From assembly GCA_048885925.1 (NCBI GenBank), contig JBHLLG010000017.1, positions 1-46,740 on the forward strand: DNA of 46,740 nucleotides, written 5' to 3'. Shown piece after piece: positions 2,408 through 38,155 of the stretch (the first letter of the stretch is position 1; every line of letters begins with the position of its first letter). The notes beneath the pieces are model-generated. The model was not told the DNA's origin, ran no database searches, and saw only the letters and a list, made by a program, of their open reading frames with translations. This DNA is from Candidatus Hermodarchaeota archaeon. GTDB lineage: Archaea > Asgardarchaeota > Lokiarchaeia > Sigyniarchaeales > SOKP01. Position numbers and translations under genes: made by a program.

Positions 2408-3028
2408 ATGTCAGAATTGAATGAGTTAATACACCTATCAAAAAAATATATTAAACCGGCTAGTCACGTCTTATCACGTGCTTTTCAGAATGATCCCGTG
2501 ATTCGCTGGCAAATTCCTGATGTTAGTGAAAGACTAATGAAGCTTCAATATGTGTGGAAGCTCTCACTTCACATAGGAATTAAATATGGTATCGTTTATG
2601 GTACTTCTGAAAATTTAGAAGGAATTGCGCTTTGGCGTCCTCCTCAAAATGTAAATTTCCCTTATTGGAGATATTTAACTAAAGGAGGATTCAAATTACC
2701 ATTTAAATTTGGCATTAAAACGACTAAAAGAATAAAATTTATTAAAGCTGTTAATGATTCCCTTCGTAATATTTATATGAAAGTTCCTTATTGGTATTTT
2801 GGGTTAATTGGTGTAGATCCAAAATTCCAAGGACAAGGATTTGCGAGTAAGCTAATTAAACCAATGTTAAAACACATAGATGAGGAACATTTACCAATTT
2901 ATTTAGAAACTACTTTAGAGAAAAACTTTAGATTTTTTGAGTATTTTGGGTTTAAAATGCTTGAGGAAATCATTATTCCTAATACAAATATCGTTAGCTG
3001 GTCAATGATTAGAGTTAGTAAAGATTAA
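2408..3028 (+). CDS. GNAT family N-acetyltransferase
   Basis: IGVDPKFQGQGFASKL acetyl-CoA motif A; YLET..N..F..FGF. Confidence 0.85.
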   Translation: MSELNELIHLSKKYIKPASHVLSRAFQNDPVIRWQIPDVSERLMKLQYVWKLSLHIGIKYGIVYGTSENLEGIALWRPPQNVNFPYWRYLTKGGFKLPFKFGIKTTKRIKFIKAVNDSLRNIYMKVPYWYFGLIGVDPKFQGQGFASKLIKPMLKHIDEEHLPIYLETTLEKNFRFFEYFGFKMLEEIIIPNTNIVSWSMIRVSKD

Positions 3029-23091: not shown

Positions 23092-23637
23092 ATGAATTTC
23101 AAAAAGATTACGCTTATAGGTTTATTTATTTTTCTTTTGGTTCCAGTTATTAATACTACAGCATTCACATATATAGATAATATAAAAGATGGAAATTATA
23201 TCTTCTTTTTAGTAGATTTAGAAATAGATCAGAATATTGAGTTGAGTATAACTCATGATGAAAGTGGAAATTTTACACTTTTTCTTTTTAATAGAAGACC
23301 CTCAAGTTCTAATGTTAATAATGATAAAACACTTAATGGAAGAATTTTTAATAATCCCCCAACTGTAGCTTTTAATCTAGACAATAGTCCTTACATAAAT
23401 TATACAGCTTTAAAAACTGATATATATTATATAGAAATAATTCTAGTTGGTGGTGGACCAGATACATTTTATTTGACATCAACAATATCTTATAAAAATG
23501 GCACTATAGTAGATAAAGATTTAACGAGGTATTATTTACCAATAATCCCTGGTTTCCATTTAGAATATATATTCTTTTCACTTACTTTCACAGTAGGAAT
23601 AGTAATTATATTAATTAGAAAGAATTTGGGCAAATAA
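23092..23637 (+). CDS. Secreted protein with C-terminal PGF/Loki-CTERM-like anchor
   Basis: N-terminal signal peptide; IIPGF followed by a TM helix and basic tail. Confidence 0.7.
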   Translation: MNFKKITLIGLFIFLLVPVINTTAFTYIDNIKDGNYIFFLVDLEIDQNIELSITHDESGNFTLFLFNRRPSSSNVNNDKTLNGRIFNNPPTVAFNLDNSPYINYTALKTDIYYIEIILVGGGPDTFYLTSTISYKNGTIVDKDLTRYYLPIIPGFHLEYIFFSLTFTVGIVIILIRKNLGK

Positions 23638-23747: not shown

Positions 23748-25424
23748 ATGTATGAAAAAAAACCTTGGCTAAAATTTTATGATAAACATGTACCTGAGCA
23801 TATTGATTATCTTAGAACTACAATGTATAAAGCAGTGCTTAATACCTCTGAAAAATATCCTGATTCAATAGCATATGATTTTATGGGTTATGAATCTACT
23901 TATAAGCAATTAATTGAGGAAATCGATCAGTGTGCTAAAGCCCTATTTAACTTAGGACTAAGAAAGGGTGATCGAATGACAATAGCAATGCCAACAACTC
24001 CACAGGGGGTAATCTGTTTTTATGCAATCAATAAAATAGGGGGAATTGCTAGTATGATCCATCCTCTAAGCCCTCCAAAACAGATTGAATTTTTCTTAAA
24101 TCTTAGTAATAGCACTTTTGCACTTACAATTGATAAATTATATCCTAATTTTAATGCACTTTTTGATAAGACACCCTTAAAAATGTTAATATTAACTCAG
24201 TTAAGTCAAGATAAAGTAGAAGTACCTGAAAGTCCTCAAATTGCCTGGTGGAAATACATCATGGCTAAGGATTATAATGAAATTCCAAAAAGTCCAATAA
24301 ATCCCGATGATATGGCAGCAATTTTATATTCTGGAGGAACAACGGGTCTACCAAAAGGGATAATGCTCTCTAATTATAACTTTATAACAGAGGGAATTCA
24401 AGTTGCGACGTGGATGAATTTATCAGATAAGGACTCAGCTCTCGCAATATTGCCAATATTTCACGGTTTTGGACTTGGAGTGTGCGTTAATGCTATATTT
24501 ATGGGTGGTGGAAAAAGTATTTTAGTTCCCTCATTTACACCTGATCAAGTTGCTGATTTAATTGAGAATAAAAAACCTAACTTAATATTTGGGGTTCCTA
24601 CTTTGTATGAAGCTCTGAACAGAAATCCTAAATTTCAAACTACGGATTTAAGCTTTTTAAAGGCAGCCTTCTGTGGAGCAGATACTTTACCACGAACAAC
24701 AAAAGAAAAATTTGAAGAAATTTGTAAAAATAATGGCTCGAATGTCCAACTTCGGGAAGGATACGGATTAACTGAAGCTGTTACAGGGATTTGCGCTATG
24801 CCGTTAGGTGAATATAGGGAAGGAAGCATCGGAATTCCTTTTCCCGATATGATGATGAAAATAGTGAATATCGGTACATCAGATGAAGCTCCCATCGGTC
24901 AAGAGGGTGAGTTATGTATTCATGGGCCTGCTGTTATGTTAGGTTATTTAAACAATCCCGAAGAAACTGCTAAAACTTTAAAAAAACATAGCGATGGAAA
25001 AATCTGGCTCCATACCGGAGATATTGGAATAATGGATAAAGATGGATTCTTCTATTTTAAAATTAGATTTAAAAGAATGATAAAATCATCTGGTTTTAAC
25101 GTATATCCTGCTGAAGTTGAAAATATTCTTTATAAGCATTCGGATGTTCTTGAAGCTTGTATTATTGGAGTGCCTGATAAAGAACAAATTCAAAAAGTAA
25201 AAGCATTTGTAATTTTAAAAGATCCTAAAAAAGCTAATAAAGAAATGGAAATAGAATTGATAGATCACTGCCATCAAAATTTAATCAAATGGAGTTGCCC
25301 ACGAGAAATTGAGTTTACTGATCAATTACCTAAAACCCTAGTCGGAAAAATTGATTTTAAACAATTAGAAGAACAAGAAAAAGCTAAATTAAAAGCATCT
25401 GGAAAATATTATGGAGAAGATTAA
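23748..25424 (+). CDS. fadD: Long-chain fatty-acid-CoA ligase (AMP-binding)
   Basis: YSGGTTGLPKG, EGYGLTE, WLHTGD, LPKTLVGKI. Confidence 0.88.
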   Translation: MYEKKPWLKFYDKHVPEHIDYLRTTMYKAVLNTSEKYPDSIAYDFMGYESTYKQLIEEIDQCAKALFNLGLRKGDRMTIAMPTTPQGVICFYAINKIGGIASMIHPLSPPKQIEFFLNLSNSTFALTIDKLYPNFNALFDKTPLKMLILTQLSQDKVEVPESPQIAWWKYIMAKDYNEIPKSPINPDDMAAILYSGGTTGLPKGIMLSNYNFITEGIQVATWMNLSDKDSALAILPIFHGFGLGVCVNAIFMGGGKSILVPSFTPDQVADLIENKKPNLIFGVPTLYEALNRNPKFQTTDLSFLKAAFCGADTLPRTTKEKFEEICKNNGSNVQLREGYGLTEAVTGICAMPLGEYREGSIGIPFPDMMMKIVNIGTSDEAPIGQEGELCIHGPAVMLGYLNNPEETAKTLKKHSDGKIWLHTGDIGIMDKDGFFYFKIRFKRMIKSSGFNVYPAEVENILYKHSDVLEACIIGVPDKEQIQKVKAFVILKDPKKANKEMEIELIDHCHQNLIKWSCPREIEFTDQLPKTLVGKIDFKQLEEQEKAKLKASGKYYGED

Positions 25425-25670: not shown

Positions 25671-26930
25671 ATTTCTTTTGATGAATTAAGCAAAAAGTTA
25701 GCTAAATTTATGAAAGATACTGAAGAGATTGAGCTCACAGACGTAGATTTGTTTGCAGAATATCTTGAATTTCAAATGCTTCCAGGTATTATACAAACTG
25801 CTGCCCAAGCTGTATTACCTGGTGTTCCCGGAAAAGCAGAATGGACTCCTGCCAAATTCTCGCTTGATATAGAATTTCCAGGTAAAATTGAGACAATTGA
25901 ATTTGTACGTTCAAAAGGGAAAAGAGTTGTAATTGGAGGAGAGGTTGTTCCTCCATTTTATAATTTTCTTGGCTTGAGCAAACGAAATCCTAATCCACCT
26001 CTCGTAACTTATGATGTATTTGATATGGGTGCTAAAATGATGCTTCCAAAACCAATAAAAGAGGAATATGGTAGCGTTTTAGCAAATCCCGCTCAATGGG
26101 CAAAATTTGCTGTTGATAAATTTGGCGCAGAATGTATTACTTTCCACTCCTTAGAAATAGATCCTGCTATGGGAGATGCTCCAATCTCTCAATCCAGGAA
26201 ATATTTAGAAGATATACTTCAAGCTGTTGATGTACCTGTCATAATTGGATGCTCTGGAAATAAAAAGAAAGATGTAGAATTATTTGAAGTAACTGCTGCT
26301 GCAACTGAAAGCGAAGTGTTAATGCTCTCTGCCGCTGATAAAGCTACATGGGAAGAAGTATGCCAATCGAATTTATCGAATGACCTTCAAATCCCATTAG
26401 CTGTCAAATATGACCATAATTGCCTACTCTGGACAAGCCTAGATATGAACAACCAGATTAAGATGAACAAGGATGCTCTCGAACTTGGACTCCCCCGTAA
26501 TAGGATTGTAATGGATCCTACCTGCGCAACAGCTTAATTTGTGTAAATCTCTTACGTGGCTGCGATTTTGGGGTACGGTATGGAGTACTCATTTAGTATC
26601 TATCAACGCATGCGCATTGCTGGACTGCTAGGCGAAACTGATCTAGCATATCCGATCAGTGGAGGAACCACGAATGCCTGGGGTGCTAGAGAAGCTTGGA
26701 TGAGTGAGAAGCAAGCTCCTGAGTGGGGGCTACGACAATACCGAGGACCTATCTGGGAAGTCCTCAATGCATTAAGCTTATCGCTTGTGGGTTTGGATTT
26801 AGCAATGATGTTTCATCCAGTTGCCGCAAAGCATGTTAAGGATATTACAAAACAATTTTTTGCTGAAATCCCGAAAATTCTAGACGAAAAGGGTTATTAT
26901 GATTGGGTTTCAGCAAATTTGAGACGTTAA
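25671..26930 (+). CDS. cdhD: Acetyl-CoA decarbonylase/synthase delta subunit (corrinoid Fe-S protein small subunit), split by two putative BHB introns; exons 25671..26360, 26391..26530, 26567..26930 (397 aa)
   Basis: IGGE..PFY.F, P..WAK, LQAVDVP.IIG.SG...KD, RIVMDPT..LGYGMEYS, NAWGAREAW and RGPIWE motifs span ORFs 25710..26537 and 26556..26930, which share a frame. The start is ATT 25671 (inferred) or ATG 25710. Confidence 0.9.
26361..26390 (+). other. Putative 30-nt bulge-helix-bulge-type mRNA intron 1 in cdhD
   Basis: Central helix GAAG(26355-58)/CTTC(26385-88), bulges TAT and AAA, exon stem AGCTA-c-ATGGGA/TCCCAT-TAGCT, internal hairpin. Removal gives TWEEV|IPLAVKY. Confidence 0.72.
26531..26566 (+). 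other. Putative 36-nt bulge-helix-bulge mRNA intron 2 in cdhD (contains in-frame TAA)
   Basis: Central helix CGCA(26525-28)/TGCG(26561-64), bulges ACA and ATT, intron stems GCT/GGC and GTGTAA/TTACGT. Removal gives MDPTCAT|LGYGMEYS. Confidence 0.82.
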
Positions 26931-28190: not shown

Positions 28191-28408
28191 CTTATTAAAT
28201 ATTGCTTTCTATACAAAAATTCTTATTATTTAACATTTACTATGAAAATAACTCATTTCTAGTTAAATAGAATTTGGACTTTTTATTAAAATATTGTCTT
28301 ATTTTTTTCTGTTCTTATTAAGAGAAAGTGTTTTCCCCTTAATTAAATTCTTGCATAAGTTATTAAAATAAATATTTTCTTAATTGCAAAATAATTTATT
28401 ATTAATAA

Positions 28409-28504
28409 GTGCAAGATATTACAAAACAATTTTTTGCTGAAATCTCGAAAATTGTGGAGGATAAACGATATTATGACTGGGTTTCGGCGAATTTAAAACG
28501 TTAG
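28409..28504 (+). pseudogene. Diverged duplicate of the cdhD 3' end (last 31 codons)
   Basis: Translates VQDITKQFFAEISKIVEDKRYYDWVSANLKR* versus cdhD VKDITKQFFAEIPKILDEKGYYDWVSANLRR* (26835..26930). A 30-bp core is identical: 28415..28444 = 26841..26870. Confidence 0.9.
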
Positions 28505-37023: not shown

Positions 37024-37911
37024 ATGTCAAATGAAATAATCCTAGAATTGAAAAATTTCTTGAGAAGTGCAAATCTCTCAAATTATGAAATTAAAACTTA
37101 CACAACACTATTAAGTTCTAATAACCTAACAGCTAGAGAACTTAGCCGAAAGTCGAATGTACCCACAGGTAGAATCTATGAAATATTAGAAGCTTTAAAA
37201 GACAAAGGTATGATTGAAATTCAAGATTCAAGACCAAAGATCTATAGGGCTATATATTTTAATGAGGCATCTCATAATGTTATTTCACACTTAAAAAATA
37301 ACCAACAAAGAAAAATTACATTTTTGGTAAATCAAGCTAAACAATTAGAATCAAAAATTAACGATGTAGATATTTCTATTAAACAAGACACATCAAAGAT
37401 ATTTTGGTCAACTGCTTATGGGTGGCGCGCTATCTTTGACTTATATTTTAAGAAATTTAATAACTTAAAGGAAAAATTGCTGATGACAGGATTCTTAAAT
37501 GAAAATACATTTAAAATTCTTCCACATGCTAAAGTTTTCTATAATGGAATCTTAAATGCATTAAATAGGGGTATTACGATAAAATATTTGTGGAGTTTTG
37601 AATATGACGCATTATCAGATGAACAAAAAGTTAGGAATGAAATGATTTTTGATAAGTTAATAAAAAAACTTAAAGATTTATTCAATTTATCCTCTGAATT
37701 AGAAGGATTTGAGATGAGATTTATACAAAAAAGAATTCCAACCTACTATGATATATTTGATAATAATAGAGTTTTAATAAAACTCCAAAATCCTTTAAAA
37801 CCCTGGCAAATCTTTGCCTGTATAAACGTACTAGACCCAATTTTGGCAAAGGAATTAACTGAAAAATATGAGAATATGTGGTTATTTGAAGCAATTAAAG
37901 GAAACGAATAA
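37024..37911 (+). CDS. TrmB-family transcriptional regulator
   Basis: LSNYEIKTY..L..TARELS..SNVP.GRIYEIL..L..KG....SRPKIY. Confidence 0.88.
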   Translation: MSNEIILELKNFLRSANLSNYEIKTYTTLLSSNNLTARELSRKSNVPTGRIYEILEALKDKGMIEIQDSRPKIYRAIYFNEASHNVISHLKNNQQRKITFLVNQAKQLESKINDVDISIKQDTSKIFWSTAYGWRAIFDLYFKKFNNLKEKLLMTGFLNENTFKILPHAKVFYNGILNALNRGITIKYLWSFEYDALSDEQKVRNEMIFDKLIKKLKDLFNLSSELEGFEMRFIQKRIPTYYDIFDNNRVLIKLQNPLKPWQIFACINVLDPILAKELTEKYENMWLFEAIKGNE

Positions 37912-37927
37912 AAAAATTTTCTTAAAA

Positions 37928-38155
37928 TTAAGCCTTCTCAATTTTCAAATAATATTTATCTCCTTCAATTTTAAATTCCAGAATTTTATCGTTCTTTTTA
38001 TCTATATATCGCTTGATATTTTCTCCTGCTTCAGCATAATCCCCAGTGACTTCAAGTATATCTCCGCTATTCATCTCAAGGAGTTGCCTTTTCGTCTTAG
38101 CTACTGGCATAGGACAAACAAGTCCAGAACAATCTAGTTTATATGAACCTGTCAT
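37928..38155 (-). CDS. tusA: TusA/SirA-family sulfur carrier
   Basis: LDCSGLVCPMPV motif. Confidence 0.88.
   Translation of the reverse strand: MTGSYKLDCSGLVCPMPVAKTKRQLLEMNSGDILEVTGDYAEAGENIKRYIDKKNDKILEFKIEGDKYYLKIEKA

Follow-up and report, generated by a model that had tools for sequence, protein, structure and literature searches.

The archaeal splicing endonuclease, EndA, makes its cuts behind the second nucleotide in both bulges of the motif known as bulge-helix-bulge (BHB), and reportedly, in work of Watanabe in 2002 and of Yoshinari in 2006, a BHB intron interrupts the crenarchaeal cbf5 pre-mRNA in Aeropyrum and Sulfolobus. Here we analyze two short insertions in the cdhD gene of an archaeon labelled Candidatus Hermodarchaeota (contig JBHLLG010000017.1 of assembly GCA_048885925.1), together with similar insertions in other genes of the same genome, all of which very probably represent BHB introns of the EndA/RtcB type in pre-mRNA. 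The window is the whole stretch of DNA that was analyzed, 46,740 nt of contig C17; G000 is the genome of the window, other G numbers denote related genomes, and L numbers denote loci. The assembly of G000 comprises 3.9 Mb in 181 contigs and is 95% complete with 4.4% contamination. The Asgard origin claimed in an earlier note on this DNA (the original prediction) fits our data: among the best 120 CdhD homologs, every one of the 23 proteins labelled with an organism is listed under an Asgard or Promethearchaeota name, Promethearchaeota in most cases and Lokiarchaeota in two.

According to the relevant passages of a 2009 paper by Yokobori, no archaeal pre-mRNA splicing had been confirmed besides that of cbf5, other cases being merely predicted (PMC2738675), and the passages on pre-mRNA in EndA papers of 2018 (PMC5829648) and 2025 cite only the cbf5 work. 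The statement that BHB introns in protein genes are known mainly from crenarchaeal cbf5 thus agrees with the literature searched, where the confirmed pre-mRNA cases are cbf5 only. No report of BHB introns in Asgard protein-coding genes was found in the full-text literature, supplements and subscription journals being outside the scope of the search. The insertions of G000 resemble the cbf5 intron, as described in parts of the 2009 paper, in their patchy gain and loss among related species, in hosts with an EndA that is, for G000 probably, of the crenarchaeal heteromeric type, and in the tendency of gene callers to mistake the intron for a frameshift or a split gene (PMC2738675). They differ in lineage, which is Asgard and not crenarchaeal, and in their host genes: cbf5 encodes an RNA-modification enzyme, whereas the genes interrupted here have metabolic, translational and signalling functions (cdhD, cdhA, cooS, aEF-2, and genes for a Ras-family GTPase, a CoA-transferase and a ferredoxin-like protein). 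They also differ in number, with up to three sites in one gene across the family, two introns in that gene at once and at least nine in one genome. Finally, cbf5 splicing is confirmed at the RNA level, whereas the introns of G000 are known from DNA comparison.

The BHB introns of archaeal tRNAs and rRNAs, including those of intron-rich Asgard tRNA genes, share with these insertions the motif, the predicted cuts, similar sizes and, as far as the passages concerned go, the occurrence of relaxed motifs at non-canonical places (PMC11291895; preprint 10.64898/2026.10.13.758758). The difference is that the host RNA here is translated, so that splicing must precede or compete with ribosomes. Introns in protein genes are unmentioned in the passages found in these two Asgard studies. 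In Haloferax, according to the abstract of a further study, EndA processes BHB motifs in mRNAs, that is, substrates beyond tRNA and rRNA, but the abstract describes no coding-sequence introns whose removal restores an open reading frame (ORF) (PMC7714728). The original prediction also drew an analogy to HAC1/XBP1. In that system a short mRNA intron is excised at paired stem-loop sites by IRE1, which is not the tRNA endonuclease, and splicing acts as a regulated stress switch. The analogy therefore holds for the short mRNA intron and, in metazoa, for RtcB-type ligation, but not for the cutting enzyme, and our data give no sign of regulation; a role of RtcB in XBP1 splicing is stated in an abstract (PMC8718801).

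The cdhD gene occupies positions 25710-26930 of the forward strand, from an ATG at 25710 to the stop codon at 26928-26930; the original prediction had implied a start at 25671, which was not borne out. Exon 1 (25710-26360, 217 codons) is supported by its ORF and by the Pfam and NCBIfam CdhD models, and its start agrees with the N-terminus of the orthologs. It is followed by the putative intron 1 (26361-26390), a 30-nt BHB mini-intron that is in frame and stop-free and would encode 10 extra residues. Exon 2 (26391-26530, 140 nt), delimited by alignment to intronless orthologs, ends within a Thr codon, AC|U (the bar marks a junction here and below). The putative intron 2 (26531-26566), a 36-nt BHB mini-intron, contains two in-frame TAA codons, and exon 3 with the stop codon (26567-26930) is in the frame of exon 1 once the introns are removed. 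Both introns were delimited by alignments and conserved structure, and a script check of the coordinates found both originally quoted splice junctions to be exact. As had been expected of gene callers, table 11 splits the unspliced gene into two same-frame ORFs, 25710-26537 (275 aa) and 26556-26930 (124 aa), which match positions 7-180 and 179-227, respectively, of the Pfam CdhD profile (PF03599). The identity of the gene is clear from the PF03599 match to its translation (E = 3.6e-41) and from the TIGR00381 cdhD score of 313.8 bits against a cut-off of 252.9, obtained with the read-through translation (TAA as X). Identity to full-length orthologs of 383-397 aa is 81-87%, measured over the read-through query, and identity to same-genus matches is 84-94%.

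Comparison with relatives shows where the gene is interrupted. We found cdhD in 29 of 40 related genomes and, for the whole family, in 113 of 134, most family matches being 1149-1164 nt long and stop-free. Within the genus, the matches were 1152 nt long without stops, 1218 nt in G005, which has both insertions, or 1188 nt in G020 and G017, which have insertion 2 only; the match in G004 was split by a frameshift. In the first alignment, 13 of 18 same-genus loci had neither insertion, with gaps exactly at the predicted junctions. Two alignments each showed 13 of 18 loci to be free of intron 1, and in the first of them 14 of 18 were free of intron 2; more distant families also lack both. CdhD has some of its most strongly conserved residues at the flanks of the junctions (...TWE.V|.P... 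and ...DPTCAT|LGYG...). The original prediction that intronless Asgard orthologs would lack both insertions at exactly these junctions was thus confirmed in the alignments, and the predicted junction-spanning peptides are equal to the sequence of the orthologs.

At least 15 of the 113 cdhD-bearing genomes have an interrupted gene, at three sites. This count is based on odd-length or stop-containing matches, partial matches at contig ends being left unjudged. Copies at site 1, the site of intron 1, were found in five genomes, one of them from another genus (G000, G005, G004 with 29 nt, G090 and G063). Site 2a, the site of intron 2, is occupied in nine genomes, by 36 nt in G000, G005, G020, G017, G112 and G139 and by 32 nt in G141, G138 and G113, the latter three belonging to another genus. 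The third site, 2b, lies 8 nt upstream of 2a and is absent from G000; its copies have the central helix CCCA/UGGG and are 33 nt long in G072 (L058) and G098 (L061) and 32 nt in G074 (L066). The copies of G004 (29 nt), G141, G138, G113 and G074 (32 nt each) break the frame, while all copies at 2a and 2b and the site-1 copies of G090 and G063 contain in-frame stops, and therefore these insertions cannot be coding sequence. Removal at the predicted cuts yields the junction of the intronless orthologs at all three sites. The earlier claim that removal restores the frame holds in the strict sense for the 29- and 32-nt copies of the relatives; in G000 both insertions are multiples of three, and their removal takes out stops or extra residues. 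One further match listed with a TAA, that of G030, was rejected as interrupted, the TAA being its own terminal stop.

In a tree of 47 spliced cdhD sequences, where the genera are largely separate, the interrupted alleles are scattered, and several have intronless sisters: G005 is paired with G008 (support 96), G063 with G064 (99), G074 with G012 (100), and G098 groups with G023 and G016 (100). The copies at one site are homologous across genera. Either the introns are old and have undergone many clean losses, or they have moved between related genomes by recombination.

The structure of both cdhD insertions agrees with the original prediction of two BHBs with a 4-bp helix and 3-nt bulges in register, coordinates and conserved pairing. 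In intron 1, the exonic 5' strand of the central helix GAAG/CUUC (26355-26358) pairs with 26385-26388, as seen in the minimum free energy (MFE) fold and in the conserved pairing. The 5' bulge UA|U lies at 26359-26361, with the predicted cut after 26360, and the 3' bulge AA|A at 26389-26391, with the cut after 26390. In intron 2, the exonic strand 26525-26528 pairs with 26561-26564 to form the central helix CGCA/UGCG, invariant but for G139; the bulges are AC|A (26529-26531, cut after 26530) and AU|U (26565-26567, cut after 26566). All these elements are on the forward strand, and in both cases a cut behind the second nucleotide of the bulges takes out the insertion and nothing more. The design is common to each class: a block of four exon nucleotides, with its end two bases short of the 5' junction, pairs with an intron block of four whose end is two bases short of the 3' junction, a 3-nt bulge lies on each strand 3' of its central-helix strand, and an intron hairpin closes the inner side.

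These structures are maintained between copies. The central helix has exactly 4 bp, with 100% of cells paired at site 1 (5 sequences) and 95.8% at site 2a (6 sequences). Over the whole structure, 93.3% of cells are paired at site 1 versus 19-45% when the partner is slid (5 sequences), and 97.1% versus 18-42% in the six 36-nt copies at site 2a. At site 1, eight pairs changed on both sides and none of 500 shuffles reached the covariation score; the third pair of the central helix is A-U, U-G or U-A, tracking an E/D codon change in the exon. In the 32-nt class at site 2a the inner stem is wholly different yet still paired, and the intron-side helix is present and covaries at both sites. In contexts of about 75 nt, the BHB-constrained fold was the MFE fold in 10 of 17 sequences and lay 0.2-1.8 kcal/mol above it in the other seven. 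For intron 1 of G000 in particular, the BHB is the MFE fold of a 76-nt stretch (z = -5.16), and none of 200 shuffled sequences did as well. Judged by these comparisons, what the insertions conserve is their RNA structure and not their sequence.

Similar insertions occur elsewhere in the genome, as the original prediction proposed to establish by a scan for BHB-bounded insertions in conserved genes; we found seven more in six genes, by comparison with relatives and by one motif scan. For a motif-free census, we took ORFs of at least 100 aa from G021 (400 kb) and G006 (800 kb) and aligned them to G000 by tblastn, covering 113,449, 83,447 and 85,014 aligned residues (about 282,000). The census yielded six introns beyond the two of cdhD, and the ninth came from the motif scan, which gives at least nine in G000: two in cdhD and seven, of 30-34 nt, in six other genes. 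The original prediction was thus right about two introns in cdhD of G000 but understated the extent, since there are three cdhD sites across the family and seven further introns in G000.

Six of the seven were delimited by ortholog comparison: a 32-nt intron in the gene of the CooS-type CO dehydrogenase (cooS; C4 38336-38367, forward strand), a 34-nt one in cdhA (C6 5548-5581, forward), a 30-nt one with a stop in the gene of aEF-2 (C2 56851-56880, reverse), two of 33 and 31 nt in the gene of a family-III CoA-transferase (C35 29-61 and 130-160, both forward) and a 31-nt one in that of a Ras-family GTPase (C12 62467-62497, reverse). The seventh, of 32 nt, interrupts the CxxCxxC|xxxC motif of a 4Fe-4S protein (C31 18957-18988, reverse) and was the best hit of a strict scan as well as visible in the ortholog comparison. 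All seven are exact nucleotide-level insertions relative to same-genus orthologs, and in each the 4-bp helix and the pair of 3-nt bulges are so placed that removal restores the junction of the ortholog. The two pieces of CooS match positions 3-458 and 458-512 of the Pfam Prismane profile, and the same site is split in G065 and G074. In the 4Fe-4S gene the motif of the intron has a helix of 8 bp on either side, and none of the 29 same-genus orthologs aligned contains this intron. Genes of CO dehydrogenase/acetyl-CoA synthase (CODH/ACS) hold four of the nine known introns.

Ordinary indels served as a control. None of 19 in-frame indels had a 4-bp helix within 2 nt of the register, and seven had one within 9 nt, about the chance rate. 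They include a 30-nt indel in the ORF at 23092-23637 of the window, and, with no BHB in register, this and the 18 others were rejected as introns and read as ordinary variable loops. In the same ORF, positions 23470-23515 form a region of variable indels of 9-30 nt among same-genus orthologs without a BHB, which serves as a negative control. Two further candidates were also discarded. The aldehyde:ferredoxin oxidoreductase gene beside the 4Fe-4S gene, apparently truncated at the N-terminus, is intact, the truncation being an artefact of the locus end. What looked like an 84-nt insertion containing a stop (C2, near 37940), in the N-terminal part of a TFB-like gene at about 37877-38000 of the forward strand, is an upstream near-duplicate of the first codons or an alternative start and not an intron; the near-duplicate resembles a small tandem duplication.

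In the reverse census, where ORFs of G000 were compared with 400 kb from G021 and with the initial 400 kb from G006, no interrupting insertion was found in either relative, only in-frame stop-free indels taken as ordinary; the matching genes of G000 have eight interruptions. The intron load therefore seems to differ between species of one genus. Extrapolation from six finds in about 282,000 residues gives roughly 23 introns genome-wide, with wide Poisson limits; this estimate leaves out the two of cdhD and assumes about 1.1 million coded residues in G000.

The machinery assumed in the original prediction is encoded in G000, with genes for both the EndA catalytic subunit and RtcB. There is one EndA of 198 aa (C22 7621-8217, forward strand) with the N-terminal and catalytic Pfam domains; its best matches in the Protein Data Bank, over residues 18-198, are 3p1z_B (E = 5.5e-38) and 3ajv_B (1.4e-36), followed by 2cv8_A and 2zyz_B, all four of which we take to be catalytic subunits of crenarchaeal heteromeric EndA. 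By this similarity the protein is a crenarchaeal-type catalytic alpha subunit. RtcB was identified with 569.6 bits. According to the passage concerned, Asgard archaea have an (alpha-beta)2 EndA with an L1 insert tied to a broad substrate range (PMC5829648).

The tRNA genes of G000 appear to be rich in introns. In the intron mode of ARAGORN, 19 of 31 called tRNA genes had an intron, some of these calls being probably spurious; since only 31 tRNAs were called, many tRNA genes are probably hidden by introns. One such call in the window, a tRNA-Trp with a 103-nt intron at 2791-2989 (forward strand), lies inside the ORF at 2408-3028 and was missed by the default scan.

These data suggest the following mechanism. 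The cdhD transcript would fold locally, with the four exon nucleotides upstream of each 5' site paired with the four intron nucleotides upstream of the 3' site, leaving a 3-nt bulge on each strand between the intron hairpin on one side and a weaker exon-exon helix on the other. EndA would cut after the second nucleotide of both bulges, and RtcB would join the exons and probably circularise the 30- or 36-nt intron. Only the spliced mRNA would encode the full CdhD of 384 residues, while the frame of the unspliced transcript would end with the TAA that lies five bases into intron 2. Six other genes, with at least seven introns between them, would depend on this process as well, and mRNAs of G000 probably need the tRNA-splicing enzymes before translation. 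Cleavage, ligation, their efficiency and the fate of the excised intron are what we infer from the conserved motifs and the encoded enzymes.

Several observations weigh against this reading. With respect to structure, the BHB of intron 2 in G000 lies 1.5-2 kcal/mol above the MFE (constrained -12.3 versus -13.8; z about +1), and that of the GTPase intron lies 5 kcal/mol above it. By the shuffle control (38 of 500), site 2a shows weak covariation, which is due to the close relationship of its six sequences. The site-2a central helix of G139 (L060) has a C.A mismatch, UACG for UGCG, which could be due to a decaying intron or an assembly error, or could be tolerated by the enzyme. Intron 1 has an extra unpaired A opposite the 3' bulge and the outer exon helix of intron 2 needs a 1-nt slip; therefore both cdhD motifs are relaxed on the exon side and are not of the textbook kind. 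The exon-side helix of the cdhD introns is interrupted by a 1-nt slip or a mismatch, and it is flush in cooS (6 bp) and in the 4Fe-4S gene (8 bp). Furthermore, intron 1 of G000 is open in frame and hence translatable in principle.

Motif scans of the whole genome likewise gave no excess over mirror decoys. A scan with the central helix, at least five of six flanking pairs and ORF merging gave 10598 real versus 10658 decoy hits, and a motif of 26-40 nt with a strong intron helix gave 181 loci in each. The strict motif gave 96782 versus 96608 hits without coding logic, and 99 versus 92 and 56 versus 61 with it, in two scans. In the latter scan only the two best-scoring real hits, those in cooS and in the 4Fe-4S gene, proved real. 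The BHB motif alone is not diagnostic in the A+T-rich genome of G000 and gives no count of introns.

An EndA beta subunit was not found either, in searches with PF01974, PF02778, phmmer and jackhmmer over all six-frame ORFs of at least 60 aa, in a genome that is 95% complete and for a subunit that diverges fast. In the metatranscriptome run X1, about 5% of the sampled words were present, and its contigs were all from a relative of about 87% identity. At a likeness of at least 85% there were five contig pieces (one at 95-99%, one at 90-95% and three below 90%) and no joints. One contig end has the intronless site-1 junction, but its flanks differ from the window, so it belongs to a relative and is uninformative on splicing in G000.

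The negative search for a beta subunit, the relaxed motifs and the distance of the GTPase structure from the MFE could be taken to mean that the RNA is cut and joined by another agent, either a different structure-specific nuclease with a ligase or a self-cleaving RNA. We consider this very unlikely, since the features that stay constant across sites, a 4-bp helix, two 3-nt bulges and cuts two nucleotides into them, are the definition of an EndA substrate. To our knowledge, 29-36 nt is too short for self-splicing introns, which counts against a self-cleaving RNA.

Equally little weight can be given to the possibility that the genes are decaying pseudogenes or are truly split and separately translated, the insertions being inert, for example small palindromic mobile elements. 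Gene callers would indeed report two ORFs, and the insertions form hairpins and are patchy among close relatives, like miniature mobile elements. However, the pattern of selection argues for use of the genes in the spliced frame. We compared the proportions of non-synonymous (pN) and synonymous (pS) differences. In exon 1, pN was 0.05-0.09 versus pS of 0.63-0.82; in exon 2, pN was 0.00-0.06; and in exon 3, downstream of the stops, the values were 0.06-0.11 versus 0.62-0.86. Over all cdhD exons after removal of the insertions pN was 0.00-0.11 versus pS of 0.62-1.0, also between two intron-bearing alleles, and the ratio of the corresponding rates (dN/dS) was 0.01-0.06 where calculable. All three exons are under strong purifying selection, and the genes are used in the spliced frame. 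In addition, both flanks are intact in fifteen genomes of three genera, while the downstream piece has no conserved start: there is a GTG in G000, and none in G005, G020 and G112 before the Met of ...GYGME.... The breaks fall inside invariant motifs, such as the CxxCxxCxxxC cluster motif of the 4Fe-4S protein, and essential single-copy genes such as that of aEF-2 are hit.

Short fragments resembling the end of CdhD were seen as well. At 28406-28501 of the window (forward strand), 1.5 kb downstream of cdhD, there is a short copy like the last 32 residues of CdhD, with 75% identity and one TAA. Similar fragments are present in G005, close to cdhD, and in G003, there on a different contig, and fragments at the DNA level are found in L002 and L015. 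The cdhD gene itself stands alone, outside any cdh operon, with the gene of an AMP-binding acyl-CoA synthetase (23748-25424) on one side and an unassigned ORF of the opposite strand on the other.

Still less probable is translational bypass (hopping) as in phage T4 gene 60, where ribosomes take off before an in-frame stop and land downstream without RNA processing. All nine copies at site 2a have GCN and then TAA just inside, and GCU near the 3' end, with a hairpin between, which superficially resembles matched take-off and landing codons. These GC/GCU repeats are, however, explained by the two-base-pair helix beside the bulge together with the central helix, and hopping would add three residues inside the invariant ...TCAT|LGYG..., which is kept by all intronless orthologs. 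No such pair of matched codons for take-off and landing exists at site 1, at site 2b or in the seven other introns, and site 1 of G000 has no stop, whereas the ortholog junction follows at every site from a single rule, cutting behind the second nucleotide of the bulge. An assembly or sequencing artefact, which the fragmentation of G000 and its contamination might suggest, is hardly conceivable, as diverged homologous copies with compensatory substitutions occupy the same sites in 14 other independently assembled genomes.

We therefore return to BHB introns in pre-mRNA. Since at least seven of them occur in six other genes, the best interpretation is that they form a population of elements which come and go and are tolerated, and that they are not a regulator specific to cdhD; the coupling of CdhD output to EndA activity that the original prediction envisaged is speculation. 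New here are the lineage, Asgard, and the scale of many genes, the kind of intron itself being already known from cbf5. Pre-mRNA BHB splicing would thereby be widened from a curiosity to a property of a gene set that includes genes of core carbon fixation and of translation. For annotation this means that such genes are called split, frameshifted or pseudogenes, so that metabolic reconstructions of Asgard archaea, for example of an intact Wood-Ljungdahl pathway, can err. Such introns can be found by comparison with relatives, while motif scanning alone cannot find them in an A+T-rich genome. Archaea usually couple transcription and translation, and if that is so here, a stop located five bases inside an intron would call for very fast splicing or for ribosomes being kept off the nascent RNA. 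The gain and loss of BHB introns can be studied at the polymorphic sites, for which intronless sister species exist.

On balance, we slightly favor a broader reading, in which mRNA splicing by the tRNA-splicing machinery is routine and genome-wide in this Asgard family, with some 10-50 BHB mini-introns in protein-coding genes of G000, including essential and eukaryote-like ones (aEF-2, a Ras-family GTPase) and those of several CODH/ACS subunits. Their rapid turnover would, in such a reading, follow from the presence of insertions in genomes with intronless sisters and from the intron of the 4Fe-4S gene, which is unique to G000 among the 30 orthologs aligned. If this is true, these archaea would be the first case of prokaryotes whose protein genes are commonly interrupted, and they would offer a living model for pre-eukaryotic tolerance of intron-bearing genes and for the uncoupling of splicing from translation.

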